Shown: piece by piece, positions 1,599 through 38,368 of the stretch | Position numbering within the stretch: position 1 is the first letter of the stretch | Layout of the letters: every line of letters begins with the position of its first letter | Virus record (IMG/VR): IMGVR_UViG_3300037047_000246 | Direction: 5' to 3' (one strand) | Origin: a virus | Lineage: Duplodnaviria > Caudoviricetes | DNA: 64,000 nt | Notes under the pieces: model-generated | The model's input: only the letters and a program-made list of their open reading frames with translations | Database searches by the model: none | What the model was told of the DNA's origin: nothing | Translations under genes and position numbers: made by a program

Positions 1599-1985
1599 AT
1601 GTCGTTCGTGAGAGCACTTGAAATGGACGAGGTGAAGTTCGAACTTGCGGCAGAGCAAGAGCTGGAAAGTCTGGAGAAAGCCTTCGACGTCCCGGAGCAG
1701 CTGCGATGGGTGCGGGAGCAGCTCGCCTCAGGCAACTGTTGGGCCTGGTGCACCGCAGTGCTCCGGGCCAGGTGGGGCCCGTTTGTGGGGGAAGCCTGTC
1801 TTGGCGGCTGCTCGTATGAGTCAGAGGAGAAGTTTTTGGAGGACTCGTGCTACTACGACGGCATGGCGGTGGACGCCCTGAACGACTTGCAGAACAAGGT
1901 CGAGCAAGCGGCCGGGGCGCTCGAGCCGCTTATGACGCGAGAATCGGTCGACGAGTGGTTCGTCCGCCGGGTGCAGGAGGACTGA
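1599..1985 (+). CDS. hypothetical phage protein (C-terminal VRRVQED)
   Basis: AGGAGG RBS; 128 aa. Confidence 0.75.
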   Translation: MSFVRALEMDEVKFELAAEQELESLEKAFDVPEQLRWVREQLASGNCWAWCTAVLRARWGPFVGEACLGGCSYESEEKFLEDSCYYDGMAVDALNDLQNKVEQAAGALEPLMTRESVDEWFVRRVQED

Positions 1986-1999
1986 TTCTGAAGATCGCC

Positions 2000-2036
2000 G
2001 GAGCTGCGCGCCCGCTGCGCGTACTGGACCAGGAGG
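2000..2036 (+). promoter_or_regulatory. CGTAC-type promoter-like motif plus RBS
   Basis: GGAGC-N15-CGTAC (2020-2024)-N6-AGGAGG, ATG at 2045. Confidence 0.65.
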
Positions 2037-2044
2037 TGACCCGC

Positions 2045-2440
2045 ATGGCGAAATTCGTAGAGGTTCCCGCAGCAGCAATCGAACAACCCTTGCAAGCGCT
2101 AGGGTTCCGCCGCGTGTGCACGCACGGCCAGGTCGTGTACATCAAAGAGCACGACTGCTGCCGCAACGTGCTGGTCAAAGTGTACACTTCGATCCCGTAC
2201 TCTTTGGTTGCTCCGGCGGGCGCCGAAGCCGTCCGCCGAGCGGGAAAGGACTCCATCCGGGTGTGTTGCGCCTACGAGAGCTCGGTCAAGAACTTCGGCA
2301 TTGGCAAGTTCCCTTACATCGCCCGGGTGGGCACGGTCGAAGGCGTCGTGCAGCGCATGCTTGAAACCGTCAAGGCGGCATGGGTACGCGGCCAGGATTG
2401 GTTCGACGGCGTCCAGGTCAAGCAGGTGATGAGCGCATGA
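2045..2440 (+). CDS. hypothetical phage protein (C-terminal VKQVMSA)
   Basis: AGGAGG RBS, ATG at 2045; ATGA overlap with the next gene. Confidence 0.75.
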   Translation: MAKFVEVPAAAIEQPLQALGFRRVCTHGQVVYIKEHDCCRNVLVKVYTSIPYSLVAPAGAEAVRRAGKDSIRVCCAYESSVKNFGIGKFPYIARVGTVEGVVQRMLETVKAAWVRGQDWFDGVQVKQVMSA

Positions 2441-2676
2441 GCCCGCCCAGCCTGCCCTCGCCCCACAAGGGCTCCGTCGACCGATGCGACGCCATTGTCG
2501 ACGTGGACGGCACATCCGTCGTCGCGCGCTGCGGCGCACCTCCGATGCAGTGGCTGCGCATTGGCCTCAACCTGTACTGCAGGTGTTCCCGCCACATCAT
2601 CGACCGCACAGGCAAGCCCATGATCAAGGTCCTGACCTACGAGGAGGCGCTCGTGCTGAGCGTCCAGGAGAGCTGA
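2437..2676 (+). CDS. small Cys/His (Zn-binding) protein, paralog 1
   Basis: C..CGAPPMQW..YCRCSRH; ends TYEEALVLSVQES. Confidence 0.7.
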   Translation: MSPPSLPSPHKGSVDRCDAIVDVDGTSVVARCGAPPMQWLRIGLNLYCRCSRHIIDRTGKPMIKVLTYEEALVLSVQES

Positions 2677-2678
2677 CG

Positions 2679-2891
2679 ATGGACGTGAACCGCTGCAACC
2701 ACATTGACTGCGGCGTTCCAGCTGTGCAGTGGATATTCTGCGGCGCTCCAGCTGTGCAGTGGACATTTTTGACCGGAGCTGACGTGCTTTTTTGCCTGTG
2801 CTGCAGCCACACCATGGACAACATGTCCGACAGGTGGAAAAACCTAACTCATGAAGAAGCGCTGGTTTTGTCAGTGCAGGAGGACTTGTGA
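2679..2891 (+). CDS. small Cys/His (Zn-binding) protein, paralog 2, with internal 30-bp duplication
   Basis: CGVPAVQW/CGAPAVQW duplication (2708-2737 and 2738-2767); ends THEEALVLSVQEDL. Confidence 0.7.
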   Translation: MDVNRCNHIDCGVPAVQWIFCGAPAVQWTFLTGADVLFCLCCSHTMDNMSDRWKNLTHEEALVLSVQEDL

Positions 2892-3481
2892 TCATCACGC
2901 AGGCCGACATCGACGCCGGGAAAGTCAAAGATGCCATACGCCATATGCCCAGCGTCACCAGAGAGGTGGGAGCAGCCGCGCGCAAGCTGGCCGGGCAAGC
3001 CCAAGTGAGCTCGGACTTGAGAACGTACGGAGGCGCAGTGCACGTCCGTGTCCGCATCAAGCTGGCTGGCTCGAACGAGTATGCGCACTGGTTTGAGGAT
3101 GAGCAAGATCTGCGAGACTGCAAGCACATCGTGTGCATCGTGCTTGGGCTGCACTACAAGATGGGCATTGTGCCAGATGAGTTGTTCGATCCGAATGTGG
3201 ACTGGAAAACAGCAGGAGACGCTCTTGCTGGAGCCATGTACGAGCTTGTGTACGACGTCGCTCAGCCGGATGTGGACCGGCTACACGGCCGGGTGCTTCG
3301 GCTGCTCGACAAGCGATCCAAGACAGTGCCGGAGATGTCGAAGCGAGCCCGCGCCGCCTGGGTCAAGGAGGTGATGGACGACGTCCGCGACAAGCTGCGC
3401 CTGGTGCGAGCCGAGGTGCAGGAGCAGGACGTCGTGGACTTGTGGCGCGAGGTGTTGTGCGAGGAGACTCAAGACAGCTGA
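2888..3481 (+). CDS. hypothetical phage protein (C-terminal DVVDLWREVLCEETQDS)
   Basis: 197 aa ORF coupled to its neighbours. Confidence 0.75.
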   Translation: MIITQADIDAGKVKDAIRHMPSVTREVGAAARKLAGQAQVSSDLRTYGGAVHVRVRIKLAGSNEYAHWFEDEQDLRDCKHIVCIVLGLHYKMGIVPDELFDPNVDWKTAGDALAGAMYELVYDVAQPDVDRLHGRVLRLLDKRSKTVPEMSKRARAAWVKEVMDDVRDKLRLVRAEVQEQDVVDLWREVLCEETQDS

Positions 3482-3495
3482 GGAGGGCGACAAAA

Positions 3496-3717
3496 ATGGG
3501 AACCTTTGACTGCTCTTGGTGCGGCAGCCCGGCAACGCAGTTCGTGGTGCAGGGCCTGCGCATCGTCTGGCACCGGTGCGAGCGCCACAAGTTGGAAAGG
3601 TCGCTGTCTGGCTCCGGCTGCACGGGAGGGACAAGCGGCTATATCGGCGGAGCAGTTTTCACGAACGAGCAAGATGCGCTGAACTTCATCTACGTCCGGC
3701 GCGTTCAAGAGGGCTAG
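3496..3717 (+). CDS. small CxxC (Zn-binding) protein
   Basis: AGGAGG RBS; CSWCGSPATQF..RCERH; ends YVRRVQEG. Confidence 0.7.
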   Translation: MGTFDCSWCGSPATQFVVQGLRIVWHRCERHKLERSLSGSGCTGGTSGYIGGAVFTNEQDALNFIYVRRVQEG

Positions 3718-3729
3718 TCATAGCCCGGC

Positions 3730-3767
3730 GGAACTGCGCGCGACTCGTGCGTACCGGACTGCGGAGG
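3730..3767 (+). promoter_or_regulatory. CGTAC-type promoter-like motif plus RBS
   Basis: GGAAC-N15-CGTAC (3750-3754), GGAGG at 3763-3767, ATG at 3775 (22-codon ORF coupled to 3840). Confidence 0.65.
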
Positions 3768-3839
3768 TGACGGTATGCCGAAGACGAAGCTGACTGAATT
3801 CCGTCTCTCCGACGAGGATCAGGACGAGGAGGTGACAGT

Positions 3840-4820
3840 ATGAGACTACAGGACCATAACGTTATCAAGGCGATCATGGAAGCCATCACCCAGCCCGAGA
3901 TGGACTCCGCCCACATTGAGCGCGACCTGCCGCTCCGGGACGGGCTGCCGGTCACCCGCATCGACGGTGTGCCGTGCGCGATGGACGTCGTCAACGGGGT
4001 GATCCAGGCCGGAGAGGGCCGCGAGCAGCAGTGGTTCGAGGTGCATCTGCGCGACGTGACCCCCAAGCGCTTCCGCTCGCCCGAGGAGCAAACGAAGCTC
4101 GAGCAGGAGCACGAAGACTGGTGGCATGTGTCGTCGAGCCAGCGCTCCGTGTTTGTGCGCAACCGCTCCCGCTCCGGGGCCGTGGAGGACTTTCTGCGCA
4201 GGTTCCCCGGCGAGGCAGCCTCCGGTCTGGACATGCCCGATGCAGAGCTCGCCCGCGGGTTCGAATTCATCGACGACGAGGGGGACCGAATCCGCGCAGA
4301 GTTCATCGCTAAAGAGGTCATGGAGACCGAGGCCGAGGCCGCTCCCGACCCCCAGTATCCGCAGCCAGGTCAGAACTCTGCGAGCTCGCAAGGAGTTGGC
4401 GGTTGCCCGGCCGGCCAGTGCTCCTGCGGCGGGTGCTACCCGGAGCCGTCCGAGGACGAGGAGCAGGACGAACAGGACGACGATATCAACGCGGTCGATC
4501 CGAACGACCCCTACCAGAATCTGAAGCCCGAGGAGTGCTATTTTGGGGTAGCCGGCGAGTCGTGCGGCGGAGACCCGGACAGCAAATGGCTGATGGTGTG
4601 CCCCAAGGACTATTGGGACAAGAACCATCGCGCCTACGACGGCTACCTGGGCAACATCTGGAAGCACTTCCCCAGCTACATGCAGGCGCCTGAGGACATG
4701 GAGTGCACCTGGGCCATCCCGGACGACAAGGGCACCGAAGACGTCGCGATCGACATGACAGTGGCGGGGTTTGAGCGCAACCTGGAGCTGGAAAGTCTGA
4801 TCGAAGCAGAGGAGCCGTGA
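3840..4820 (+). CDS. acidic hypothetical protein, probably multidomain
   Basis: 326 aa; D/E-rich linker and small Cys cluster. Confidence 0.75.
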   Translation: MRLQDHNVIKAIMEAITQPEMDSAHIERDLPLRDGLPVTRIDGVPCAMDVVNGVIQAGEGREQQWFEVHLRDVTPKRFRSPEEQTKLEQEHEDWWHVSSSQRSVFVRNRSRSGAVEDFLRRFPGEAASGLDMPDAELARGFEFIDDEGDRIRAEFIAKEVMETEAEAAPDPQYPQPGQNSASSQGVGGCPAGQCSCGGCYPEPSEDEEQDEQDDDINAVDPNDPYQNLKPEECYFGVAGESCGGDPDSKWLMVCPKDYWDKNHRAYDGYLGNIWKHFPSYMQAPEDMECTWAIPDDKGTEDVAIDMTVAGFERNLELESLIEAEEP

Positions 4821-5443
4821 AAGCGCAGTTCGAAGCAGCAGAGGTGAAGGCGCGATTCGAGGCCTATTTGGCACCCATTGGCCTTTACCTGTACTGGACG
4901 TCTTTGACACTTCAGAACCAGAAAGACTTGGTTCGGTCCATAGTTGGCTGCGTGCAAGAACAAGAAGCCGCTCTGCGGAGCGCTAAAATTCAGGCCTACT
5001 GCGTGGCCTCAGGTCACACAGTTTCGATCCGCTTGAAGTGCCGTACAGGCACCAGACGGCTCCAAAAGGTCGTGCCTCGGAAGGGAGCTCCGACAGTCTC
5101 AGAGGTGGTGCTGGCATGCACGCCCCATTTCAAAGTAGTCCCGAACGGCGAAGCGTACGCGGCCCTGCACGCCGCTGCCCGCTGGTTTTCTGTGCTCGAG
5201 CTGGAATCGGCTCTGGGCGATGAGCTGCGAATCAAGATCGACGAGGCGCTGGCTGCACTGCCGACAGCGCAGAAGGCAAAGGCGCTGCAGCAAGCCGAGG
5301 CCAATCGGCACAACACCAGGTTGCGCCAACGGCAGGCGGCTTTGGAGCGGCTGGCGGAGACGATGCGCACCTGGGAGTACGGCGAGTCGGACGTGATGGA
5401 GGCTTGGCGCATGTCTCAAGTGGAAAGGGTGCAGCAGTCATGA
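4817..5443 (+). CDS. hypothetical protein (C-terminal DVMEAWRMSQVERVQQS)
   Basis: 208 aa, GTG start overlapping the upstream stop. Confidence 0.7.
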   Translation: MKAQFEAAEVKARFEAYLAPIGLYLYWTSLTLQNQKDLVRSIVGCVQEQEAALRSAKIQAYCVASGHTVSIRLKCRTGTRRLQKVVPRKGAPTVSEVVLACTPHFKVVPNGEAYAALHAAARWFSVLELESALGDELRIKIDEALAALPTAQKAKALQQAEANRHNTRLRQRQAALERLAETMRTWEYGESDVMEAWRMSQVERVQQS

Positions 5444-5859
5444 CGTCGTCTCAGTCATCGGTGGTCGGCGCGTGCGAGTCGCAAGTGCTGGCCCTGCTCG
5501 ACTGGTGGGTGGAAAAACACCAGGACGCCATCTTGGGCGTCTTGGAAGGTGCCGATCCGGGCGTCTTCGGCTCGGTGAGCTTGGATGCTGTGGGGTTCAA
5601 AATCCTGGAGCACTGGAGCGGATGGGAGGAGCTGTTCTTCAGGGACGTATATGCCGATTCGTTCGCCGCATTCACCTGGAACCGCTACGACAGCTATTGG
5701 GTGGGCATTAATACCAACGGCGTCAGGCATCTGGACGGGGAGCTGCACGGCCGGATCGGGTTGGTTGCCAAGGAAGCCGGCTGGATCGATAAACATCGCC
5801 GGACCATCCTCGCCACGCAGCGCCGCCTGCGCCAGATCAAGAAAGTGCAGGAAGCATGA
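5440..5859 (+). CDS. hypothetical protein (C-terminal IKKVQEA)
   Basis: ATGA overlaps at both ends. Confidence 0.7.
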   Translation: MTSSQSSVVGACESQVLALLDWWVEKHQDAILGVLEGADPGVFGSVSLDAVGFKILEHWSGWEELFFRDVYADSFAAFTWNRYDSYWVGINTNGVRHLDGELHGRIGLVAKEAGWIDKHRRTILATQRRLRQIKKVQEA

Positions 5860-5918
5860 AAGACTTGCTGCAAGAGTGCGGGCTGACTCCTGAAGAAGCG
5901 TTCAAATCAGGTCTGTAA
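5856..5918 (+). pseudogene. 20-codon N-terminal remnant of the repeat-protein gene at 23432
   Basis: MKDLLQECGLTPEEAFKSGL* versus MKDLLQKHGLTPEEAFKLGL at 23432, with clear nucleotide similarity. Confidence 0.75.
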
Positions 5919-5952
5919 CTACTAATCGCCCGGACTGGGCGAAGGAGGGCGA

Positions 5953-6342
5953 GTGATGCTGGAAGTCAAGCTGGAACTCCTCGTCGAACGCCAGGAGCTA
6001 GGCAGCGAGTCGTACTTTCTGCAGATCGAGGTGGAGTCGAAGGACAACCCGCTGCCGATCGATCGTAAGGAGCTCAAACAGGCGGCGGCGGCGGCGGCTC
6101 TCGCGGGCCTCTCGTCCAGCGAGCCCGCCGACGTCGTGGACCTGTGGTTTGACGGCAAAGATTTGATGGTGTCCGACGACAACGTCGTCCCGGCATACAT
6201 CTCGAAGGTCAAAGTGCTGCGATGGGTGATGGAGACCGCGAGGGTCGACAACTGGTATGTGCACCTGGCGACCGGGCGGTACTTCGCCAAAGACAACTTC
6301 GACCTGGGGAACAACATATGGCATGGCCGGGCGCCCGCTTGA
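5953..6342 (+). CDS. hypothetical protein
   Basis: AAGGAGG RBS; 129 aa. Confidence 0.7.
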   Translation: MMLEVKLELLVERQELGSESYFLQIEVESKDNPLPIDRKELKQAAAAAALAGLSSSEPADVVDLWFDGKDLMVSDDNVVPAYISKVKVLRWVMETARVDNWYVHLATGRYFAKDNFDLGNNIWHGRAPA

Positions 6343-6369
6343 GGTGTCCGGCCATCCAGAATATGCAAC

Positions 6370-6438
6370 ATCCCTTTGAAGCCGACCTTCGAGCGCAACT
6401 GGAGGTCGGGCCGGCTCGCGCGTACAGAGTGCAGGAGA
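6370..6438 (+). repeat. copy 1 of a ~69-bp hairpin + CGTAC + RBS module (copy 2 at 9166-9235)
   Basis: atccctttgaagccgaccttcgagcgcaactggaggtcgggccggctcgcgcgtac(a/c)gagtgcaggaga; the copies differ by one substitution and one T indel. Confidence 0.9.
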
Positions 6439-6784
6439 GATGATTGAAATGTCCAAGAAGCGCAAGCCCGAGCCGATGCAGTCATCCTGGTGTCGTACGT
6501 GCCGCTGCTCATGAGCGCCGATCGCGGATCCGCGCGCCTGGCGCGTACCGAACAGCGAGGCGGGCACCGGCCGCTCGGTCAGCCTGGCTGGCTCCCCCGA
6601 GCGGACACGGCCCCGCCCCAATTTTACATCAACCGCGCCGCAAGGCGCGCTGAGGGGTCATGAGACAGCAAGCCGACTTGACGCAGGACCCGGTGGGCCG
6701 AGGCCGTCTCTCTCGGCCAGTTCGAGCTGGCGCAGCAAGGCCCCGAATGCGGCTACATCGTCGAGCAGCTCAAGGAGCAACTCA

Positions 6785-7063
6785 ATGGCTGACAAAGAGC
6801 TGTATCAAGTAGTGACTTTTCTGGATTTCGAGGTGTCTGTGGCGGAGCATGCCGATCCGGTGCAAGCAGTCAACCTGGCGATCGATGCCACTTACCCTGG
6901 AGACCCGACTCACGCCACATACTTCATGGCCGATCCTCGCGAGTGGGAAGCCGGGCAAGAAAACCTGTCGGCCATTGGTCCGACGGACTTCGCGCTGTTG
7001 GTCATCGTAGGTGAAGTTGACACGAATCCATATCCGTTGGGCATCATTCGGAGAAAGAGGTGA
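6785..7063 (+). CDS. hypothetical protein
   Basis: AAGGAG RBS; 92 aa. Confidence 0.7.
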   Translation: MADKELYQVVTFLDFEVSVAEHADPVQAVNLAIDATYPGDPTHATYFMADPREWEAGQENLSAIGPTDFALLVIVGEVDTNPYPLGIIRRKR

Positions 7064-7068
7064 CTGGC

Positions 7069-7290
7069 ATGGCGGAGAAGAAAGACACCTACTTCAAGCT
7101 CAATTTGGATCAGGTGGACGAGATCCTGTCCGAATTCGGCATGACGGTGCAGCAGGCTAAGAATGTTGGAGCGGGTGTCCGACGCGCTGGACGAGGCGGC
7201 GAAGGTCCGCAGGGAGCTCGACGAGATGCGCGAAGACCGCTCCGGAGGCCGCTTCCGAGGGTATCCGGTGCAATCCTACACTATCTCTGA
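7069..7290 (+). pseudogene. small gene apparently frameshifted near 7165
   Basis: MAEKKDTYFKLNLDQVDEILSEFGMTVQQAK continues more plausibly in another frame as MLERVSDALDEAAKVRRELDEM at gctaag-a-atgttg. Confidence 0.45.
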
Positions 7291-7298
7291 GGCCCGCC

Positions 7299-7335
7299 GC
7301 AGGTCAGCGCGCCTGGCGCGTACTGGGCCAGGAGG
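7299..7335 (+). promoter_or_regulatory. CGTAC-type promoter-like motif plus RBS
   Basis: GCAGG-N15-CGTAC (7319-7323)-N6-AGGAGG, ATG at 7344. Confidence 0.65.
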
Positions 7336-7343
7336 TGACTCGC

Positions 7344-7757
7344 ATGCCGAGAGCGAAGCAAGCCAAGAGCAGAGCAGCAGTCGCGCAGGTGATGCTCGAC
7401 CTGCCCGAGGACCTGAAGGCGCCGGAGGGTTTGTCCGAGCGCAGCCTGCAGGCCTGGGAAACCATCGTGCAGTTCCTGGTCGCCAACGACCTGACTTACA
7501 CTGGCGGCTGCGGGGCGTTCATGGACCCGAAGGAGTGGAAGGAACGCGGCGGCGAGTATGGAACGGAGTCCGTGCTCGTCATCTTCCACGAGGGCTCCGA
7601 GGTCGGCCAAGCGTTCTCGATGGACGACTGCTACGAGCGCGGAGGCGGGGCGAACTGCTACGCCAAGCTCGAGGCGATGTCGGACGAGCTGGCGAAGATC
7701 GGGCTGTTCGCCGAGCAGTGCACGCGGCGCTACTCGGCCGTCTACGAAATCAAGTGA
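7344..7757 (+). CDS. conserved hypothetical phage protein
   Basis: YTGGCGAFMDPKEWKERGGEYGTESVLVIFHEG resembles a recurrent phage family (from memory, not searched). Confidence 0.75.
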   Translation: MPRAKQAKSRAAVAQVMLDLPEDLKAPEGLSERSLQAWETIVQFLVANDLTYTGGCGAFMDPKEWKERGGEYGTESVLVIFHEGSEVGQAFSMDDCYERGGGANCYAKLEAMSDELAKIGLFAEQCTRRYSAVYEIK

Positions 7758-7766
7758 GGTGGCGCC

Positions 7767-7979
7767 GTGAAGAAAGCGATGCTCAAGCGACTGGGACTGA
7801 AGAGCGTGACTCCTTGGAGCAACGGCCGAGATCCTACGGAGTTCGGGTGGGTCATCGATGGCGAGAACTGGACGGCGGACAGCCTGAACGCAGATAACGC
7901 TCCGGGAAATCTCGTCGACGTGGCCAAAGAAGAGGGATATGGCGACGACGTAACGGGGTTTCTGCAAGACCGCTGCTGA
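7767..7979 (+). CDS. hypothetical protein
   Basis: GAGG RBS, GTG start; 70 aa. Confidence 0.6.
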   Translation: MKKAMLKRLGLKSVTPWSNGRDPTEFGWVIDGENWTADSLNADNAPGNLVDVAKEEGYGDDVTGFLQDRC

Positions 7980-8058
7980 CTGCGCAGTATATGCCAGGCA
8001 GTTCGCGAATATGTGCCATGACATGCGCCCGTACGCGCGGAGTCCGCCGAATCCAGCC

Positions 8059-8096
8059 GGGAGCCGAGCGGCGCCCGCCGTACCGGGCGCAGGAGG
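8059..8096 (+). promoter_or_regulatory. CGTAC-type promoter-like motif plus RBS
   Basis: GGGAG-N15-CGTAC (8079-8083)-N7-AGGAGG, ATG at 8104. Confidence 0.65.
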
Positions 8097-8103
8097 TGAC
8101 GAA

Positions 8104-8424
8104 ATGTCGAGCCAGACCAAGCCGTACCGAGCAGCGGGCATCTTCTACACGACGTACCAGAATGAACCGTCGCAGCCGTTCTGCCTGGAGCTGCGCCGCG
8201 GCCAAGCGGCCGAAGACTTGGCAGAGTTTTACCGCAAGTCCTGCCAGGATCCGGAGGATCCGGACGCGTTTCAGCCGGGCGTGCTGTCGGCCGAGGAGTA
8301 CTACGGAGACGTCGCGATGCGCGGGCCTGACGACGAGGAGTCCGAGATCCTGTTCGTGACGTTCGCCGACGAGGACCGGGTCGAGGCGCTGGCCGAGCTC
8401 GACTTGCCGGCAGAGGAGTCATGA
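8104..8424 (+). CDS. acidic hypothetical protein
   Basis: AGGAGG RBS; ATGA overlap with 8421. Confidence 0.7.
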   Translation: MSSQTKPYRAAGIFYTTYQNEPSQPFCLELRRGQAAEDLAEFYRKSCQDPEDPDAFQPGVLSAEEYYGDVAMRGPDDEESEILFVTFADEDRVEALAELDLPAEES

Positions 8425-8864
8425 AAGTCAAGCTTGTCAAGCTCGAGCTAATACATACCGGCGCGGCCATCGTGGACGTGGCGTTCCTGCTGCCAGGGTG
8501 CAAACGCAGCCGCGAGGTCAAGTTCTTCGTCCGAATGCAGGGCGGCGTCCTCGCCGTCGATGTGCATCCGATTCCGCTCAGCGTGCCCAAAAACATCAGG
8601 CAGCGGCTTGGAGAGGCAGGTTGGGAGCGCATCCGTGCCGAGAGCTTCCGGCTATTCGCAGAAGCCGGAGGTCCGAAAGCCCTAGCCGAGCGCATGACCA
8701 AAAGCGAAGCAGAAGACCGCCAGCGCCTGATCCAGGAGGCCACCACATCGGTGAAGTATGCTGCGGCGAAGCTGCTGCGGTGCAAGCTGGGATGCCAAGA
8801 TGCAGAGGACATCGTTCGAGATGTGGTTCGAGAAGTGTTCGTCAAACAAGTCATGCAAAGCTGA
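8421..8864 (+). CDS. hypothetical protein (C-terminal VREVFVKQVMQS)
   Basis: 147 aa. Confidence 0.75.
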   Translation: MKVKLVKLELIHTGAAIVDVAFLLPGCKRSREVKFFVRMQGGVLAVDVHPIPLSVPKNIRQRLGEAGWERIRAESFRLFAEAGGPKALAERMTKSEAEDRQRLIQEATTSVKYAAAKLLRCKLGCQDAEDIVRDVVREVFVKQVMQS

Positions 8865-9165
8865 CTTTTGAACACCCCCGGCTGAAGCGGATCGGAGGGC
8901 CGAGCGCTGCGCGCGTAGCGGCGAGTGCGACAGACGCGGGCAACGGCCGACGACCCGCCAACCAATTCGCTGAAACATGGAGGTCTGCATGCACTGGCAT
9001 TAGGCGTGACTCCGCAAGGGTGCCGCGTTCCGCTCGTGGCGGCGCCCCAGGAGAAGCAAGCGCGAGGGCCGGCGGACATGATCACTCCGTCGGATGGCGT
9101 GGCCGGGCATCCTCTGCAACCTTCGGGTCGACGCGGAGGCTGGCCCGGCCACCGTCGCGCCGGGG

Positions 9166-9235
9166 ATCCCTTTTGAAGCCGACCTTCGAGCGCAACTGGA
9201 GGTCGGGCCGGCTCGCGCGTACCGAGTGCAGGAGA
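9166..9235 (+). repeat. copy 2 of the hairpin + CGTAC + RBS module
   Basis: Near-identical to 6370-6438; CGTAC at 9218-9222; precedes ATG 9242. Confidence 0.9.
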
Positions 9236-9241
9236 TGACGC

Positions 9242-9619
9242 ATGGCGAAGAGAAAGACCCCTGAGCAGATTGTCGCCGAAGTGCATGAGCACAATCCGGA
9301 CGGGCTCGACATCGGCGTGCCGGTCGACTACGCGCCGTCCGACGGCGAGGTGGACAACATCGTCTATCTGGTGTGCAAATACGCCGCGAACTGGCCCATG
9401 CGCGGCGCGGACTTGGCCATCTGCAAGATGATGGCCGGCGAGATGCGAGGGCGCGAGGGCATTGAGCAGCTCGTGCGCGTGACGTGCGAGTACGTCTGGG
9501 ACCATATCTGCGGCGAGCCCAAGAAGCCGACGGCCAAAGACTTTTTCAAGCACATGAAGCCTCTTCTCGAGGAGTGGTATAGCAAAACCTCGGCGGACGA
9601 CAGGAGCAAAACGTCATGA
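9242..9619 (+). CDS. hypothetical protein
   Basis: 125 aa; after the TGA the same frame continues PVLDLWREVIARDLGALS, resembling the shared C-terminal module. Confidence 0.7.
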   Translation: MAKRKTPEQIVAEVHEHNPDGLDIGVPVDYAPSDGEVDNIVYLVCKYAANWPMRGADLAICKMMAGEMRGREGIEQLVRVTCEYVWDHICGEPKKPTAKDFFKHMKPLLEEWYSKTSADDRSKTS

Positions 9620-9687
9620 CCCGTGCTCGACCTGTGGCGCGAGGTGATCGCCAGAGATCTCGGAGCCTTGAGTTGAAGGAGGATGGA

Positions 9688-9807
9688 ATGAAGGCACTGC
9701 TGGCGAAGTATGGGATGACTCCGGAGCAAGTATACGAAACCGGTGTGTTTTGTGCGTTGGATCTGTGTGCAAGACTCATAATCTTGCAGCCACGACGCAG
9801 ATCGTAG
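9688..9807 (+). pseudogene. truncated paralog of the repeat-protein N-terminus
   Basis: AAGGAGG RBS; MKALLAKYGMTPEQVYETGVFCALDLC versus MKDLLQKHGLTPEEAFKLGLRCILDLC; no repeats follow. Confidence 0.6.
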
Positions 9808-9846
9808 CCCGGCTGACGTATCGCCCGCCGGAAGGAGCAAGAAGTC

Positions 9847-10077
9847 ATGATTCAGATCACCACCATCACGCGCGGCTACTTGACTCACGCCGACCGCAAG
9901 CGCGCCATCAAGCACCTCCGTCGCCGCGGCTATGATCACTTCGTCGAGTACCGGGACACGGCCGCGAAGTACGCGCTGTGCTACGGCAAGTACATCCGGC
10001 TCGAGCGGATGCAATGCCAGGACCTGCTCGGGCTGGCCGCCGGGCCGGTCCAGCTTCCCCTGGCAGGAGTTCGGTGA
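9847..10077 (+). CDS. basic hypothetical protein
   Basis: GCAGA-N15-CGTAT motif variant and AAGGAG RBS upstream. Confidence 0.65.
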   Translation: MIQITTITRGYLTHADRKRAIKHLRRRGYDHFVEYRDTAAKYALCYGKYIRLERMQCQDLLGLAAGPVQLPLAGVR

Positions 10078-10099
10078 TGTCCGGCGGGAGGGACGACTG

Positions 10100-10462
10100 A
10101 TGACAGACGAAGACAAACTGATTGCCGAAGTGCACGAGGAAGAGATCAAGAAGATCTTTCTGTTCGTCCGCGGTCCGCTGGACAATGCCATATCTTGGGC
10201 TGAGCTCTGGACTCAGCGGCAGGCTGAGGACTACGTCAAGCACGACCTGGCGAAAGCCGGCGTTCTAGGGAAGCCTTTCGAATCGTACAGGGTGGAGCGC
10301 CACCGGGAAGAGAGCGAGGTCTCCATCTTGATCTGGGGCGAAGACAGTCCGAGCGTCCAGCTCGACGACTACGGAGACAAGAAAGGCCTGCTCGTAAAGC
10401 TGGATGGCAAAGAAGTCTTCAGCAATCTTCGACCCATCGAAGATGATGAGGAGGTCGAATGA
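10100..10462 (+). CDS. hypothetical protein
   Basis: GGAGG RBS, ATG at 10100. Confidence 0.7.
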   Translation: MTDEDKLIAEVHEEEIKKIFLFVRGPLDNAISWAELWTQRQAEDYVKHDLAKAGVLGKPFESYRVERHREESEVSILIWGEDSPSVQLDDYGDKKGLLVKLDGKEVFSNLRPIEDDEEVE

Positions 10463-10902
10463 AGACCGTGCTCACCATCGGCGGGTTCATCGCGGCGGCG
10501 GTCTTGGCTTGCATGGCTCTGGTCTTGGTGGGGGCCTTGAACCTGGTGCTCAACGGCTACCACTCGGAGTGCGGCATCTGGGAGAACGCGGTGCCGTTCG
10601 CTTGCAACCCCGGCAAGAAGCCTGAGGGGAAAGCCAACGTCGCCCGCCCTGCCCCGCCCGCCAAGGCCTCCTTGAAGGCGTCCGCCGCGCCGCAAAGGCC
10701 GGCCGGCCGCCTCGCGCCGCAGAAAGCAGCCGCAGTTTCAAAGCCCTCAAACAATCCGTACACGGGCCGGCGAGAGCCTTGGGGCTGCGGCCCGCTTCAA
10801 GCCGAGCCTTACCGGGTGCAGTGCGTCAACGGGATCTGCTACCACGACCCTGGATTTCGCGCAAACTGCGGCCTGGCGCACGACTGGAGGGACGGGCAAT
10901 GA
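10459..10902 (+). CDS. membrane-anchored or secreted protein with Pro/Ala linker and Cys-rich tail
   Basis: Hydrophobic N-terminus (GGFIAAAVLACMALVLVGALNLVL); P/A/K-rich linker; four-Cys C-terminus. Confidence 0.7.
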   Translation: MKTVLTIGGFIAAAVLACMALVLVGALNLVLNGYHSECGIWENAVPFACNPGKKPEGKANVARPAPPAKASLKASAAPQRPAGRLAPQKAAAVSKPSNNPYTGRREPWGCGPLQAEPYRVQCVNGICYHDPGFRANCGLAHDWRDGQ

Positions 10903-11505
10903 AGACTCGGCAAGAGTTGCTGAACTTGATCCAGCAGTCGTCCGACGACCTGCTCAAAGCGATGTCGGATGCCGTTCAGCTACATAGGCATAATGTCAAC
11001 AGTCAGCTGCAGCAAGAGCAAAAAATATAAGAAGCCCGCAATCGCATCGCGAAAGACCGTGCGGGCTTCAAGCGGCTTCTGCTGCGCTCGAAGCTGCAGG
11101 TGGCCCGGGTCAAGGGCTATGAGCTGCGCAAGTGGAATCTGCGTTTGATCGACGCCAGCCCGGTCGCCCAAGTCCCGGTCGTGCACGAGATCACGCTCTG
11201 CTCGGGCGACTACAGCGACTACAAGCTCGAGGAGCTGCTGCGAATTGCGGTGGCCAAAGAATACCAGGTGCCATGGTTTATGGGTAGTAACGGGCAAAAG
11301 ACTCGAAGTTGCCCGAAGCATGCATCCGGACGTCTGGTCCAAGGCGATGAAGCGGCTGCGCCGCAAGGCCGCTTGGATGACCGCCATGGACGCGGCCCGA
11401 TGCACGGCCAACCCGGCCGCACAGCACATGTCCAAAGACAAGCTGCTGGAGCTGGTCGGCCGCGCGTACGACAACGTGGTCCTGAAAGCAGTGCAGGATG
11501 TCTGA
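10899..11505 (+). pseudogene. disrupted gene with an in-frame TAA (11028-11030) and a frameshift near 11270-11300
   Basis: The frame of 10899 continues past TAA into 11100..; the plausible C-terminus (…VVLKAVQDV) lies in the frame of 11245..11505; both breaks sit in AT-rich patches. Confidence 0.55.
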
Positions 11506-11866
11506 GCGCCTCAGGCCGTCCAGACGCCAGCTGGCGCAGGAGCTTGAAATGAGCGTCGAGATTCTGGAGTTCATGTTGGGTCTGGACCACTTCAGGCTGC
11601 GCTGGCGCAATCCGCTGCACGGCCCGGAGCGCAGCGAAGTCTACCGGTTCAGGCTCACTCCGGGCCGCAAGCAGCTGTCTGTGGCCACGACCGGATTCCC
11701 TTCGTTTGCGCCTCCGCCCGAGCTGCGCCAAGCGCTGGAAAAAGCCGGACACTGGACGGCGATCCGAGACCAGCTGATTCGCCAGGAGCTGGATGCCCTG
11801 GCCGCGCAATTCGGCGAGACGGTGCTGGCGCAGATTATGAAGTCAAGACGCGGCAGGCGCACTTGA
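11498..11866 (+). CDS. hypothetical protein
   Basis: 122 aa, overlapping the upstream stop. Confidence 0.65.
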   Translation: MSERLRPSRRQLAQELEMSVEILEFMLGLDHFRLRWRNPLHGPERSEVYRFRLTPGRKQLSVATTGFPSFAPPPELRQALEKAGHWTAIRDQLIRQELDALAAQFGETVLAQIMKSRRGRRT

Positions 11867-12129
11867 CAGCAAGGGCAGTGTTTGATCTTTCATTTGCGGC
11901 AACCTGCATGAGCAACATTCACGTGCGCGTCGCCGCTAGGGCGATTCAAGCAGCTCGATTCGAAGTCGATGGCCAGCCGTTCGACGAGCTTTATCTGGCT
12001 GCCCAAGAGGCGGAGTTTGCCCACTCGGACGACGGACAGCCGCACCAAGTGCTGGCCGTCGTGGACGACGAGCACGGCATGTTTTCGGCTGGAGAAGTGG
12101 TCTACACGTCCAAAGGCGCGCCGGAGTAG
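11863..12129 (+). CDS. hypothetical protein
   Basis: 88 aa; start uncertain. Confidence 0.55.
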   Translation: MTARAVFDLSFAATCMSNIHVRVAARAIQAARFEVDGQPFDELYLAAQEAEFAHSDDGQPHQVLAVVDDEHGMFSAGEVVYTSKGAPE

Positions 12130-12187
12130 CCGCGCAGGCTTGCATGCTTGGCGCGCAGGTGCGCTGTAAAGTCAGGGAGGTGACAAC

Positions 12188-12340
12188 ATGCACGCCTGCG
12201 GAAACCCTTTGCACGACGTTCCCCTGTACATCGTCATGGCGCTGCCGTTCTTGGCGCCCCTGCTGGTGTGGCTGAAGATGAAGTTCGGCCGCCGCTGCGA
12301 ATGCGGACACGACCACGCGCAAGACCACGAGCATACCTGA
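12188..12340 (+). CDS. 50-aa single-TM protein with Cys/His-rich tail
   Basis: GGGAGG RBS; MHACGNPLHDVPLYIVMALPFLAPLLVWLKMKFGRRCECGHDHAQDHEHT; below the ORF-track size cutoff. Confidence 0.7.
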   Translation: MHACGNPLHDVPLYIVMALPFLAPLLVWLKMKFGRRCECGHDHAQDHEHT

Positions 12341-12366
12341 CTTCGTCTGCGCGTCGAAGGGCCGGA

Positions 12367-12404
12367 GGAGATGCGGCGCGGCGGCGCGTACCTGTGCCGA
12401 GAGG
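12367..12404 (+). promoter_or_regulatory. CGTAC-type promoter-like motif plus RBS
   Basis: GGAGA-N15-CGTAC (12387-12391), GAGG at 12401, ATG at 12411. Confidence 0.6.
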
Positions 12405-12410
12405 TGCCGC

Positions 12411-12689
12411 ATGCTTCGAGATCGCAAAAATTTGAAGGACCTGGAGTTTGCAGCTGTGCTGCAGTTCGGCGTTCAGGCGGCGCGCTTGCGGTGCACTTCG
12501 GCTGAGCAAAACAGTCTGGGGTTTGTCAATCTCGACAAATCTGGCAATTCGACGCATGAGCAGTTGTCCATATCGTTCATGTCGTCCCGCGAAGTCGGGT
12601 TCGACCGGGTCATGTGCGGACTGTTGCACGCTGCTTACGGCGAGCAGTTCACTGGCTACAGGCATGACTACTGGATGCAATGCGGCTAG
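12411..12689 (+). CDS. hypothetical protein
   Basis: 92 aa, downstream of the motif. Confidence 0.65.
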   Translation: MLRDRKNLKDLEFAAVLQFGVQAARLRCTSAEQNSLGFVNLDKSGNSTHEQLSISFMSSREVGFDRVMCGLLHAAYGEQFTGYRHDYWMQCG

Positions 12690-12787
12690 CCACCATCTGC
12701 CTGAAGCTGGCGGCGTTCCTGGACATGATTGAAGTGGACGCACTTTGAGAGGTCATAAGAACAACGAGTAGGCTGAGGAGAAGCGTC

Positions 12788-13036: not shown

Positions 13037-13038
13037 TT

Positions 13039-13311: not shown

Positions 13312-13319
13312 AGCCGGGC

Positions 13320-13357: not shown

Positions 13358-13366
13358 AACCTGGCG

Positions 13367-13558: not shown

Positions 13559-13605
13559 TGCAAGCTGGCGTTTTGGACGGTTTCACTCTTGCTGGAGGTG
13601 ATTGC

Positions 13606-27427: not shown

Positions 27428-28542
27428 TCATGAGGGCTGAGGCATCGCAAAAGGCCTGTACGTGCGCTTGCCCACCAGCTGGTACATCAGCTCATCGAAC
27501 TCTCTGTGCAGCTCCCAGGCATCGTCTGGCCGCGCGTGGGGCGCGTCGAGCGCGCATCCCCTCAAGAAGGATTGCAGCTTCTTGGGCACGGCGTCCGGCA
27601 TCCTTAGAGTCGCCGGATCTCCACCCAGCAACATAACCATCGTCTTGGCCACCATAAAGATGTCTGTGCGCGGCGTCGGCGCGCCTTTGCTCAGCACCTC
27701 TGGCGCGTAGCATGCACGCCAAGCGCGGCTGGCGAACGGAATGCGCGCGCCGTCTTGCGCGGCCGACGTCCAGTCCAACAGGATCGCCCCGTGGTTGATC
27801 GGGTGCACCATGACGTGCGGCGGAATCACGGCGCCGTGCACGACTCCGGCGCCGTGCACCAGGTGCAGCGCTGACAGCAGGCGCTTGAACATCCAAGCGG
27901 CGTCTTTGCAGTCGATGCCCTTGGGGAAGGCGTGCAGCACGCGCTCGAGCGGAATGTGCTCGTCGTAGCAGGCGAAGATGTTGACTCGTCTGCTGGCGCC
28001 TTTGGCGTCGCGCATGCTGAAGTCGTCGACCAGCTCCGGCAGAAGCTTGAGCAGCTTCTCGGCTCGGGCTGACGTCTTCTTGAAGACGTGGCGCAGGGTC
28101 TTGGCTTCATTCTCTATCAAGTCGTTGTCGCCCGCGTTGCGAGCGACTTTGAACACCGCCTTGCGGTCTTGCGCGCCGTCCGCCCAGGTGCAGTCGTACA
28201 CGTCCGCGATATCTCCCGAGCACCGCAAGGCGCCGACCACGTACTTGCGGCGCTTGACTTGCACCACGACGGGACTGGCCTTCGGAGCAGGAGCCGCGGC
28301 GGCCTTGTCGCCATAAGTGCCGGCTCTTACTTTGGCCTCGGCTGCAGCGTTTATGGCTGTGAGCTTGGTGAACGCTGCAGTCGCTTGCGACTTGTCGGCA
28401 TGATGGTCGGGGTGAACGACTTGCACGAGCTGCCGATATAGCGCCTTCAGATCATGCAGCTGTTTGGCCTGGTCGCCGCTCAGCGCGCCGAACACATCTT
28501 CAGGGGCGCCGCCAGAATGCTCTGCAACACCTTGTCTGCCAT
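27428..28542 (-). pseudogene. J-domain plus Ser/Thr kinase-like fusion, frameshifted near its 5' end
   Basis: YRQLVQVVHPD J-motif; AVFKVAR..NEA..VHGAVIPPHVMV..ILLDW kinase-like core; N-terminus MADKVLQSILAA (ATG 28542) is out of frame at a G4 run near 28505, so the intact part is 27428..28495. Confidence 0.75.
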
Positions 28543-30183: not shown

Positions 30184-30732
30184 ATGGCGAACTGGGATCG
30201 CATCTACGCCTCGCTACAAGCTGCCGTAGTGGCTGCCGAGGGGTGTCTGACCGACGCGCCTTCCAGAGCGCACGGCACGAAAGCGGACTGGCACATTCGC
30301 ACGCTGCAGCGCGGAGAGATGCCCTGGTGCGCCACCATGAGATCGGATGGCCTGCTAGTGCAAGCTGGCCATAATGCAGCATTCTCCATTCGGCTGACAA
30401 ACCGCGAGCCTGAAAGCCTGCGCCGGCTTGTGGGATTCCTGTGTATGCTGAGCACCATGCACACGATCGGGGGCAGGGAGCAACTTCATGTTAATGTCGA
30501 GCATGAGGCCAAGCGACTGTCGCGCTTCATCAGATGTGATATGGGTCCGCGTGCGGCCTCATTCTATAGCGAAGTGATGGAATATTGGCGCGATCCTCTA
30601 GATATCCGACGCGCCAAAGTCGAGCAAGTTATGCGACATATTTTAGCCGAATGTCTTGATGTCGGGATGACCATGCAGGACGTCGCCAAGATGTGGGACG
30701 AAATGCAGGTGCAGAAAGTCCACGACGAGTGA
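30184..30732 (+). CDS. hypothetical protein (C-terminal QDVAKMWDEMQVQKVHDE)
   Basis: ATG at 30184 follows the upstream stop; central AT-rich patch. Confidence 0.7.
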   Translation: MANWDRIYASLQAAVVAAEGCLTDAPSRAHGTKADWHIRTLQRGEMPWCATMRSDGLLVQAGHNAAFSIRLTNREPESLRRLVGFLCMLSTMHTIGGREQLHVNVEHEAKRLSRFIRCDMGPRAASFYSEVMEYWRDPLDIRRAKVEQVMRHILAECLDVGMTMQDVAKMWDEMQVQKVHDE

Positions 30733-35751: not shown

Positions 35752-35817
35752 TAAAACCTGTGTGCGCGCTTGTTTGTACAGTGTGTGTGCTTTGCCTATG
35801 CGTTTGCGAGGATTACA

Positions 35818-36924
35818 ATGGTTAAACCGGCTGATATTGGATGGGGTAGTTACAAACAGTGGGAGGGTCCGTATCACATCGGAAACATTCCGTTCATCAT
35901 GCCGAACGACCCGACAGATGACGAGAAAGTTCTGTCCGTAATCACTGCAACGGAAGGCGGATCGTACTCCGCCATCAACATGTACGACTCGTGCATACTT
36001 AGCGTTGGCCTGATTCAGTGGTGCGAAGCTCACTACCTGGTATCGGGTCTTCTCGGAACAGTGGCGGCCAGCAACCCGGCTCTGCTGGATCCGATGGGCC
36101 CCGCCTTGAAGTCTGTCAGCGCCGCGTTCAAACAGCGGCAAGACGGCAGATGGCGGTTTTTCGACAGCACAGGCGAGGTCAATACCTTGGCCAAGCAGCA
36201 AGCGCTGTTTTTGGGATGCTCTGGCACGAAAGGCGCGTGGACCGCAGAAACCAAAGCGAGAGCCAGGCTGTGGGCGGCCTGCGTGGCTTCGATCTGGGAG
36301 AATGAAGAAGCCTGCAGAATTCAGATGCGATACACAGCAGACAGGCTCAGTATGTTCCACACAAAGGAGTCTAAAGCAATCCTTTGCGGGCCAAATTCGC
36401 CGAAGCACAACGATGGGTGGGTCGGCGCCGTCCGTGCCGCTTATTTGAGCTTTGCTGCCAACTTGCCCGCCGTGGCTTCGGAACACCTTCGCTTGGCCGT
36501 CTCTCAAACCAACGCGGCTGTGTGGACCGAACCGTGGGCGATTGCTGTTTTGCGTCAGCTAACGTTTGGGCCGAAGATTGCCATATATCCGGCCCGATAC
36601 GAAAAAATCCGCCCCAAGCTTGAGTCGCTATACTCTGTGGATTTGCCTGATTTTGCGCCGGATTTGTCTGAATGGCATGCAGAAATAGAGCTGAACACGA
36701 TACCTGGCATGGCGCCAGAGTTCCTAGAGCCCAAAGAAGTGCAGGAAGAGCTCATCGCCCAAGGTTACGACCTGGGTCCAAGAAAAGCCGACGGCGTGTT
36801 TGGTCCAAAGACAAAGCAAGCTGTGCGAGATTTCCAGTTGAAACACGGCTTGTCTGAAAACGGAGTGGTCGGCATCAACACGCGCAAGGCACTGTTGGCG
36901 GAGTACGTGAAGAGGTCATCATGA
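35818..36924 (+). CDS. putative endolysin or muramidase with C-terminal PG_binding_1 domain
   Basis: TEGGSYSAINMYD..LSVGLIQW lysozyme-like segment; VQEELIAQGYDLGP..DGVFGPKTKQAVRDFQ..GL..NGVVG.NT. Confidence 0.8.
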   Translation: MVKPADIGWGSYKQWEGPYHIGNIPFIMPNDPTDDEKVLSVITATEGGSYSAINMYDSCILSVGLIQWCEAHYLVSGLLGTVAASNPALLDPMGPALKSVSAAFKQRQDGRWRFFDSTGEVNTLAKQQALFLGCSGTKGAWTAETKARARLWAACVASIWENEEACRIQMRYTADRLSMFHTKESKAILCGPNSPKHNDGWVGAVRAAYLSFAANLPAVASEHLRLAVSQTNAAVWTEPWAIAVLRQLTFGPKIAIYPARYEKIRPKLESLYSVDLPDFAPDLSEWHAEIELNTIPGMAPEFLEPKEVQEELIAQGYDLGPRKADGVFGPKTKQAVRDFQLKHGLSENGVVGINTRKALLAEYVKRSS

Positions 36925-37115
36925 CAACTCAGTCACTGACGCATCTCAACGACACGGAGCTGCTCGATCTGCTTGATCAGGTGAGCGCCGAGGTCAAGCG
37001 CCGCAACACGCTTGTGCCGTCTGAATCGGAAAGCTTCGTAGACCAAGAGGCGCTGAAGAATGCTACCGCGGCTTTTGCCCGGATGATGAAAGATGTCACA
37101 AGTCAAGGTCGCTGA
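36921..37115 (+). CDS. hypothetical protein
   Basis: ATGA overlap with the lysin. Confidence 0.6.
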   Translation: MTTQSLTHLNDTELLDLLDQVSAEVKRRNTLVPSESESFVDQEALKNATAAFARMMKDVTSQGR

Positions 37116-37707
37116 TATCGCCCACAGAAGCGATTGGCTTGGGCTTGCGTTCTTCTATTTCTTCGTTGATGAGTCTCAGTACTGCTCGCAGTGAGGCTGC
37201 TGTTTCTTGAAAACAGTCCAGCCCGAGGTTGCTTTCCCAGCTGTCCTGGTGTCGCCTCAAGCAAAGATTGGCCGCGTGTATGGCTGTCGTAAGTTCAGGC
37301 GGACCTACCTGAAAATATTTGCAGTCGCTCATTTGCCTATACTCCCAGTCGCACACGTCTGTGCCGTCGTGCGGACAGTGGTAATACGGCGCATTTCTCT
37401 CAAGCGGTGCGCCGTCGCTTCGCACGCCAGGGTCAAACCTGTAACTGCCTTCTAGCTTGATCCAGCTACCCACCCGAAGCGGCGTCGGCGCATCGAACCT
37501 GAAAGCAATTTTCTCTTGTGGACATTCAACTGTCACCGCCCACGGGCCATGTCCGGTCACATAGCACACTCGGCCGACGTGAGGACCTGCTTGAAATGTT
37601 GTTTGCATACCCAAAACATACACTGCGCAGGGTCGGCGTCGTGCCACAAACGGCCCAATCCGCAAAACGACGGCGCTTCTAATCCTCCGTAGTTTGCGAA
37701 TCAGCAA
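37096..37707 (-). CDS. hypothetical protein
   Basis: 203 aa ORF; start uncertain. Confidence 0.5.
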   Translation of the reverse strand: MLIRKLRRIRSAVVLRIGPFVARRRPCAVYVLGMQTTFQAGPHVGRVCYVTGHGPWAVTVECPQEKIAFRFDAPTPLRVGSWIKLEGSYRFDPGVRSDGAPLERNAPYYHCPHDGTDVCDWEYRQMSDCKYFQVGPPELTTAIHAANLCLRRHQDSWESNLGLDCFQETAASLRAVLRLINEEIEERKPKPIASVGDISDLDL

Positions 37708-37952
37708 TGTACATACTATGGCAGCCCGAAATGGGCAAGTGTTCGCACTGTGGCAAAAGATCTCGCATTGTGCGCAGATTCACGGATGCCAGGTCCCACT
37801 CAGTTTTTTGCCATTCCTGTTGGAGTCGAGCTCAAAGAAACAGGATGGAATACGCCGTGAGCAAACATGAATGGAAAGACGACTCGGCCGTCACATTCGA
37901 ATGCGAAGTTAGTGTGAAGCACGGGTTTGCGTTGGACGTAGTGTGGCACTGA
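37707..37952 (+). CDS. small CxxC protein
   Basis: CSHCG..FCHSC. Confidence 0.5.
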   Translation: MYILWQPEMGKCSHCGKRSRIVRRFTDARSHSVFCHSCWSRAQRNRMEYAVSKHEWKDDSAVTFECEVSVKHGFALDVVWH

Positions 37953-37969
37953 ATTTGGCAGTCCGGCAG

Positions 37970-38368
37970 TCAGGACTCCTGGACGTCGTTCACGAACATG
38001 CTGAGCTGAACGTCCTCTGGAATGGCAGCTACCAGGCTGCGCACCAGCTCATTCAAATCGGCGTGTCTCAAGTGGTCAAATTTTTCAGTCAAAAGAGTCC
38101 GGCAAATGTCGCCGGACTCGAGACTGAGTGTCACCCATCCGCCTGGTGGGTGACTCAGCACCATGAGCACGACAAGTGTCGCATTCGGCAAACTGAATTC
38201 CGGCAAACGGAATCTCCACTCAATCTCAAGTTCAGTACTGCTGCTGACGACCAAGGAGCACAGTTCGGACGAATTTTCACCTGGCAGCACCAACTGCCGG
38301 GTGAATGACTCCAGTTTCTCCTTCATTTGCCTCTCGACGTCATGGCGAATCATGGAAGGACCATACAT
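37970..38368 (-). CDS. hypothetical protein (C-terminal FVNDVQES)
   Basis: 132 aa. Confidence 0.65.
   Translation of the reverse strand: MYGPSMIRHDVERQMKEKLESFTRQLVLPGENSSELCSLVVSSSTELEIEWRFRLPEFSLPNATLVVLMVLSHPPGGWVTLSLESGDICRTLLTEKFDHLRHADLNELVRSLVAAIPEDVQLSMFVNDVQES

Follow-up and report, generated by a model that had tools for sequence, protein, structure and literature searches.

Our analysis showed that many mostly unrelated accessory proteins of a huge-phage clade carry the same short peptide at their C-termini, and that this peptide is genuine, strongly selected and anchored to the chain end. We describe it here from positions 1,599–38,368 of a 64,000-nt stretch of DNA from an uncultured groundwater phage (the window, at its full length), which is the reverse strand of bases 233,348–297,347 of virus record IMGVR_UViG_3300037047_000246 (362,524 bp, complete, with direct terminal repeats). 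The tail is fixed in position and reads [V/I]-x-x-[V/I]-[M/Q/H]-[E/D]-x-COOH, within a wider consensus of E at −10, a hydrophobic residue at −9, V/I at −7, V/I at −4, M/Q/H at −3, E/D at −2 and S at −1. The original prediction, made from the sequence of the window, had listed 18 proteins with such an ending; all 18 C-terminal strings and stop coordinates translate as it gave them, and the tail fits 16 of the 18. Groundwater and coal-seam metagenomes contain DNA identical to that of this phage, and we found no DNA-level resemblance to any cultured phage.

Genes were called with a dicodon model trained on the phage's own genome, giving 473 genes that cover 91% of it; all statistics on the four huge phage genomes compared below (G000–G003) come from this gene finder, the calling of longest open reading frames (ORFs) having been dropped as unreliable at high G+C. 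A strict pattern, [VILC]-x-x-[VI]-[QMH]-[EDSQ]-x at the exact C-terminus, matched 51 of the 473 genes against 0.32 expected (71 matches in 106,384 internal windows of the proteins). Shuffled tails gave a mean of 0.32 matches and a maximum of three, so the genome-wide enrichment check against shuffled controls that had been suggested came out clearly in favour of the motif. When the pattern was shifted by one to seven residues from the end, the counts were 1, 0, 2, 0, 0, 1 and 0, compared with 51 at offset 0; the register is thus fixed to the free C-terminus, as in a docking motif. ORF ends outside genes matched in 8 of 4,836 cases. A profile of the 12 C-terminal residues, thresholded at the 99.9th percentile of the scores of internal windows, was passed by 83 of the 473 proteins (17.5%), about one in six over the whole 362-kb genome. 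Moreover, a scan of residue classes that presupposed no motif picked out −7, −4 and −2/−3 in all four genomes, with log10 p of −14 to −170 versus −7 to −10 at pseudo-termini.

Relatives keep the tail. The tag is on 18.9% of the genes of G001 (376,674 bp, 51% G+C) and 24.4% of those of G003 (426,960 bp, 40%), both fetched whole, and on 10.5% of those of the fragment G002 (45.5%), against an internal rate of 0.1%; relatives retaining it span 40–64% G+C. In 26 orthologue pairs both members are tagged; of the residues identical between them, 54% in the tail and 60% in the body are encoded by different codons, and substitutions in the tail stay in class, with V and I interchanging and M, Q and H likewise. 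Codons therefore diverge in the tail much as they do in the body while residues exchange within their class, so selection is on the peptide: homologues conserve amino-acid classes, not nucleotides. Tag status is retained in 21 of 28 orthologue pairs, the discordant ones being mostly near-threshold tails, and comparison of orthologues shows tails gained or lost through C-terminal extension or truncation.

The bodies behind the tail are diverse. Compared without their tails, 84 tagged proteins were sorted by BLAST into 79 groups, and Pfam searches with the 32 largest returned only DUF4116 (three paralogues) and one GIY-YIG domain. Tagged proteins are shorter (median 94 versus 153.5 amino acids (aa), range 37 to 433 aa) and soluble, apart from one of 69 with a membrane-spanning look. 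Most of their genes (69 of 83) lie in a 134-kb terminal arm, at 259–362 kb plus 1–31 kb, and only 3 of the 147 core genes, those shared with both complete relatives, are tagged. Orthologues were found for 34% of tagged versus 57% of untagged genes, at 44% versus 59% identity. One family, that of the protein encoded at 2046–2440, has 20 homologues: the 16 closest (at least 53% identity) all end in QVKxVMxx-COOH, and the four distant ones (41–47%) conserve the body, diverge completely past the last tryptophan and have no tail. Two of these untagged homologues have tagged genes as neighbours on their contigs. Thus the tail occurs on mostly unrelated bodies, and its gain and loss do not follow the body, which again is the behaviour of a docking motif. 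An AlphaFold2 model of 2046–2440 (pLDDT 83) has an alpha/beta domain and a 33-residue C-terminal helix ending in the tag; the fold had no PDB match at E ≤ 0.001.

Two further features vary among the tails. The residue at −3 is specific to lineage, being almost only M in G003, G002, L075 and L079, a mix of M, Q and H in G000, G001 and L091, L in L077, and I or V in L082 (three tails only); this may reflect the specificity of whatever reads the tail, or drift in G+C. Cysteine occurs at exactly −12 in 9–21% of tagged proteins depending on the genome, compared with a background of 2–3% and almost none at −11 or −10. This subclass comprises the window gene 25447–25779 and 48 other tagged genes in the four genomes, and its cysteine is often preceded by H-P-x-x-x, an arrangement suggestive of the final ligands in a small zinc knuckle that has the tag as its C-terminal helix.

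Taken together, the tail is probably a portable C-terminal docking motif, selected at the protein level, on fast-evolving soluble accessory proteins. Going by its sequence, it works like a docking or addressing label, and it looks like the address label for one common partner. An amphipathic helix would end in the tail, which forms its final two turns and places hydrophobic residues at −7, −4 and −3, followed by an acidic residue at −2 and a small −1 residue bearing the free carboxylate. A single common reader would then gauge how far the chain end lies from a hydrophobic groove, and docking would address the tagged proteins to one machine.

A candidate reader encoded beside the window

The leading candidate for this reader, offered as a lead rather than a finding and with considerable reserve, is a pair of a MoxR-like AAA+ protein and a zincin-VWA protein. 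The AAA+ gene (genome 299,583–300,689) is 2.2 kb upstream of the window, and 3.5 kb beyond it is a DUF2201_N/DUF2201 gene that fuses a zincin (HEGYH) to a VWA-like domain (DTSGS). Wherever the flank of a related locus extends to both genes, they are syntenic. Tag-like ends border the pair in each of the 12 related loci examined, among them two NCBI assemblies in which 13 of 44 and 19 of 45 neighbouring genes are tagged. In 47 zincin-VWA homologues the HExxH motif and the metal ion-dependent adhesion site (MIDAS; DxSxS...T...D) are invariant, the MIDAS being complete (D398, S400, S402, T458 and D483). For the AAA+ protein, Foldseek with a predicted model (pLDDT 70) gave NorQ and CbbQ2 as the nearest compact folds (target TM-score 0.52–0.56), with MCM and dynein modules alongside; by Pfam it scores 22–24 bits for AAA_5 against a cut-off of 22, and AAA_3 stays under its cut-off. 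The zincin-VWA profile found no PDB relative by sequence, and ClpP, Lon (Lon_C), PDZ_2 and TPR_16 were not detected among the phage-encoded proteins. A predicted complex of the zincin-VWA protein (alignment of 47) and the 2046–2440 protein (alignment of 16) with Zn and Mg scored 0.10 against a mark of 0.32, which gives no verdict.

If the pair is the reader, the intact MIDAS of the zincin-VWA protein would accept the acidic residue of the tail or its terminal carboxylate, and the HExxH peptidase could then process or clear the docked proteins. The full scheme, in which the AAA+/zincin-VWA pair docks, processes or clears 80–160 fast-evolving accessory proteins per genome through the C-terminal heptapeptide, as a phage-private and proteome-wide addressing system for sorting or turnover, is more speculative again, and we hold it to be unlikely as it stands. 

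Several observations weigh against the pair as reader. The clade has five complete genomes, and the four checked for both genes (G000, G001, G003 and G004) all carry them, a 436-kb record has the two adjacent (locus L079), and the four records without the pair are 40–64% fragments; the pair is therefore core to the whole clade, and its co-occurrence with the tags does not discriminate. Coliphage N4 encodes the pair as gp24/gp25 and shows no C-terminal motif, so the pair has a function independent of the tag. A test for covariation of the AAA+ protein with the −3 residue has no power either way, since the heavy Q/H users compared are sister lineages and −3 loosely tracks G+C. Finally, where Iyer et al. 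(2021) discuss the pair in jumbo phages, they propose a role in virion assembly (PMC7824862).

In this genome inserted homing-endonuclease-like genes (L004:3487–5319 and L004:5962–6822, genome 300.8–304.2 kb) separate the AAA+ and zincin-VWA genes; the types of insert found between the two are treble-clef zinc finger/REase/Mom-like and GIY-YIG, and one tagged gene also lies there. Beside the AAA+ gene is a gene for a 231-aa protein (L004:1407–2099, genome 298,751–299,446), of which relatives (L007, L077 and L009) have several diverged copies around the pair.

The same pair is also present in Vibrio phage VBP47 (NC_020848.1; L086 and L087) and Pseudoalteromonas phage pYD6-A (L092, 1–40 kb). In these marine N4-like phages, small early proteins with no mutual BLAST link end in a tail of the same architecture, [LMIVA]-x-x-[LM]-[LIV]-[GDNE]-x-COOH. 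In VBP47 this pattern, chosen post hoc, is found in 10 of 117 proteins versus 0.28 expected, and in pYD6-A, where it was applied a priori, there are 3, 6 and 2 matches at offsets 0, 1 and 2, versus 0.27 expected at each; coliphage N4 has zero matches to it. The addressing system may thus be more general, with tails of like architecture in marine N4-like phages that have the pair.

A reader other than the AAA+/zincin-VWA pair is a substantial possibility, if short of an even chance: the capsid interior, with the tail as a cargo-loading or ejection signal, or a host protease, chaperone or secretion ATPase. The sequence evidence fits such a reader as well as it fits the docking motif read by the pair. 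T4-type prohead proteases have L/I-x-E sites, and the [V/I]-x-[E/D] near the chain end is similar to these. In giant phages the virion is reported to contain more than 50 proteins, of which many are ejected (PMC10052503). At the same time, the tagged genes are distant from the structural module and hardly any belongs to the core, and a search of the phage for a T4-type prohead protease, run without a positive control, detected none.

Common descent, translation and junction signals

The tagged proteins might instead descend from one or a few families as strongly diverged paralogues, in which the C-terminal helix is structural and not a signal; we regard this as improbable. In its favour, small paralogue groups do exist, and small phage proteins unrelated by BLAST may nonetheless share a distant ancestry. 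In the single model built, that of 2046–2440, the tail extends a long helix, so that part of it could be structural, and the proteins with Cys(−12), often as H-P-x-x-x-C, may form a single zinc-knuckle superfamily. Against a common origin, lengths range more than tenfold, and DUF4116 repeats, a GIY-YIG nuclease and an alpha/beta domain are all found among the bodies; one family has the same body with and without the tail, and tails are gained by extension. Moreover, the motif is held at offset 0 and almost absent internally, which a structural helix would not need.

Action of the nascent peptide in the ribosome at termination, tuning release or read-through, has a very small share of the probability. 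The fixed spacing to the stop codon would suit it, the phage carries a stop-reading tRNA(UUA), and TAA is depleted in tagged genes across the four genomes (Mantel-Haenszel OR 0.64, p 0.002). However, all three stops are used, the base following the stop is unbiased, and hydrophobic residues spaced i, i+3, i+4, together with a variable residue at −1, are what a docking helix typically shows. Regarding stop usage itself, TGA is enriched and TAA depleted among tagged genes in each of G000–G003, and tRNA(UUA) is carried by G000 and G001. The idea that tagged genes avoid the stop read by the phage's own tRNA was rejected, as it fails in G003, which has tRNA(UCA) and yet is enriched in TGA.

The last alternative, that the motif is a by-product of a Shine-Dalgarno (SD) sequence or another nucleotide element of gene junctions read in frame (xxG GAG giving Q/M-E), can be discarded with near certainty. 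The tag rate does not depend on a gene downstream (11.5% with the next gene within 15 nt, 13.4% with a gap above 40 nt, 8.3% at convergent ends), GGAG occurs in only 14 of the 51 strict tails, and the alternative residues are not linked by their codons: the codons of M, Q and H at −3 differ by two nucleotide changes, and the Ser at −1 has an AGC codon in 6 cases and a TCN codon in 14. Codons for V, Q, E, D and H in the tail match genome usage, synonymous divergence is alike in tail and body, and the motif persists at 40% G+C. Even the GGAGG within the tail at stop 1985 is not the ribosome-binding site of the next gene, because that start lies 60 nt on and has its own AGGAGG. Only two stops, 2676 and 2891, have an in-frame GGAG for which a double role is plausible, 5–10 nt before the next start; the gene after stop 2676 starts 2 nt downstream, and there GGAG possibly serves both. 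The original claim of a protein-level tag, with a degron, a packaging or ejection signal or an adaptor-binding tail suggested as its function, had named two refuting outcomes, loss of the motif under an SD control and homologues that conserve nucleotides rather than amino acids; its core survives both checks.

Tagged genes in the window

The stretch contains 16–17 tagged proteins (Table 1), and most proteins within it belong to no Pfam family. The shared signature predicted on about 18 proteins stands for the 16 that pass the profile. RWLQEAA (stop 13558) was dropped as a member on its score, and the gene ending at 2891, a weak paralogue of its neighbour 2437–2676 (E 2e-5), fails because of a one-residue shift only. 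The accompanying claim that the carriers are otherwise unrelated needs some qualification: most have no BLAST link, but there is a small paralogue group (2676, 2891, 3717 and, weakly, 13311) and one pair, ending at 17975 and 22503, in which the helix before the tail is the only shared part.

Table 1. Genes of the window that carry the C-terminal tail, with variant, decayed, rejected and weak cases. Genes classed as tagged pass the profile; stops are at the right-hand coordinate on the + strand and at the left-hand one on the − strand.
Coordinates	Strand	Class	Length (aa)	Tail	Profile score	Remarks
1599–1985	+	tagged	128	VRRVQED	18.3	G001 orthologue ends VSQVQEM, codons differ
2046–2440	+	tagged	131	VKQVMSA		start 2046 rather than 1955; one of only 3 tagged core genes
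2437–2676	+	tagged	79	VLSVQES	18.6	weak paralogue of genes ending 2891 and 3717
2679–2891	+	variant	70	VLSVQEDL		one extra residue
2888–3481	+	tagged	197	CEETQDS	18.8	tail preceded by DVVDLWRE
3496–3717	+	tagged	73	VRRVQEG	14.4	TAG stop; next gene 122 nt off
3840–4820	+	decayed tail	326	SLIEAEEP		G001 orthologue (58% identical) ends LLDEVHES and passes profile
4817–5443	+	tagged	208	VERVQQS	16.8	tail without GGAG
5440–5859	+	tagged	139	IKKVQEA	15.5	G001 orthologue ends VKKIQEA: V/I swapped at both hydrophobic positions
8421–8864	+	tagged	147	VKQVMQS	21.4	no GGAG; next gene 229 nt off
11320–11505	+	tagged	61	LKAVQDV	11.8	
13039–13311	+	tagged	90	VLLVHEV	17.6	
13367–13558	+	non-member		RWLQEAA	−11.3	
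17975–18490	−	tagged	171	VWETMES	21.0	
22503–22655	−	tagged	50	VAKIMES	17.2	convergent junction, downstream neighbour on opposite strand
23432–24103	+	tagged	223	IRSVQDS		DUF4116 repeat protein (Pfam E 4e-18)
25447–25779	+	tagged	110	VQEVMEI	22.0	H-P-x-x-x-C ending at −12
30184–30732	+	tagged	182	VQKVHDE	23.7	convergent junction
37970–38353	−	tagged	127	VNDVQES	12.9	convergent junction
41131–41505	+	weak extra candidate	124	SVMSVMTS	10.8	G001 orthologue below threshold

For the 197-aa gene 2888–3481 no orthologues were found in the viral collection or the three related genomes, and the DUF4116 gene 23432–24103 has two tagged paralogues elsewhere in the genome. A search for promoters among upstream 8-mers returned the SD plus one weak word only. 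A single groundwater RNA library (n=1) yielded 12 contigs identical to scattered parts of window positions 1–20000; such contigs are no proof that the tagged genes are transcribed, and the library may contain DNA. Elsewhere in the window, 27428–28495 (−) encodes a 355-aa protein with weak matches to the J-domain (DnaJ) and to protein kinases, both under the Pfam cut-offs, and 20172–22208 (+) a 678-aa protein with collagen triple-helix repeats, in a stretch of 68% G+C. Two core proteins, including a DnaB-like helicase, are split by inteins with LAGLIDADG domains.

Known systems and significance

Short terminal peptides on unrelated proteins have precedents. The cargo-loading peptides of encapsulins are C-terminal and the capsid-targeting sequence of T4 is N-terminal, and each addresses its carriers to one protein shell of HK97-type ancestry; the phage tail is unrelated to them in sequence and has 80–160 carriers per genome, mostly non-core accessory proteins. 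The ssrA-type degrons read by ClpXP, ClpAP, FtsH and Tsp share with it the importance of the exact chain end, and the candidate pair resembles FtsH in composition, FtsH being an AAA+ module plus a zinc HExxH peptidase. However, such degrons end in non-polar residues (LAA), unlike the phage tail, which ends in [E/D]-[S/E/A], and the phage proteins that were searched include no detectable ClpP, Lon or PDZ_2.

Closer in gene content are the modules of Kaur et al. 2020 (PMC7159879), in which zincin peptidases are found beside vWA-MoxR genes with small diverging proteins that have conserved C-terminal peptides. As in those modules, the phage combines a zincin peptidase with a MoxR-like AAA+ protein and vWA, and its carriers are small, rapidly diverging proteins of which the C-terminal peptide is the conserved part. 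The Kaur modules have one precursor gene beside the peptidase, with an FxSxx, RxD or acidic motif, and often a radical-SAM enzyme; the phage genome has no such peptide on a single adjacent precursor but V-x-x-V-[M/Q/H]-[E/D]-x on 83 carriers, dozens of them over 134 kb, and its peptidase and VWA domain form one fused protein. The NorQD system has a VWA partner, NorD, that docks by its C-terminus on the hexamer of NorQ, a MoxR protein (Kahle et al. 2026, PMC13036017). This is a precedent for a chain end touching a MoxR-type ring, and NorQ/CbbQ are the compact folds nearest to the phage AAA+ protein; in NorQD, however, the docked end is that of the single VWA partner, whereas the phage VWA protein ends in a conserved basic tail of the FGRVAPLR type, unlike the tag. 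The same two-gene architecture, AAA+ followed by DUF2201_N plus a VWA-like domain, is described in group 2.2 jumbo phages (PMC7824862) and is that of N4 gp24/gp25; the discussion of the pair by Iyer et al. (2021) in that paper does not mention a C-terminal tag on other proteins. Our literature search found no description of the tag.

In huge phages most genes lack a function, and a label on 10–24% of the proteins defines a large functional class at once, because whatever reads the tail handles all its carriers. The peptide, at 7–12 residues, is also an experimental handle that can serve as bait, portable tag and search key for annotation. If the AAA+/zincin-VWA pair is indeed its reader, a gene pair found widely in phages, N4 among them, would thereby gain a function, and the finding would reveal a virus-encoded sorting or timed removal of accessory proteins.

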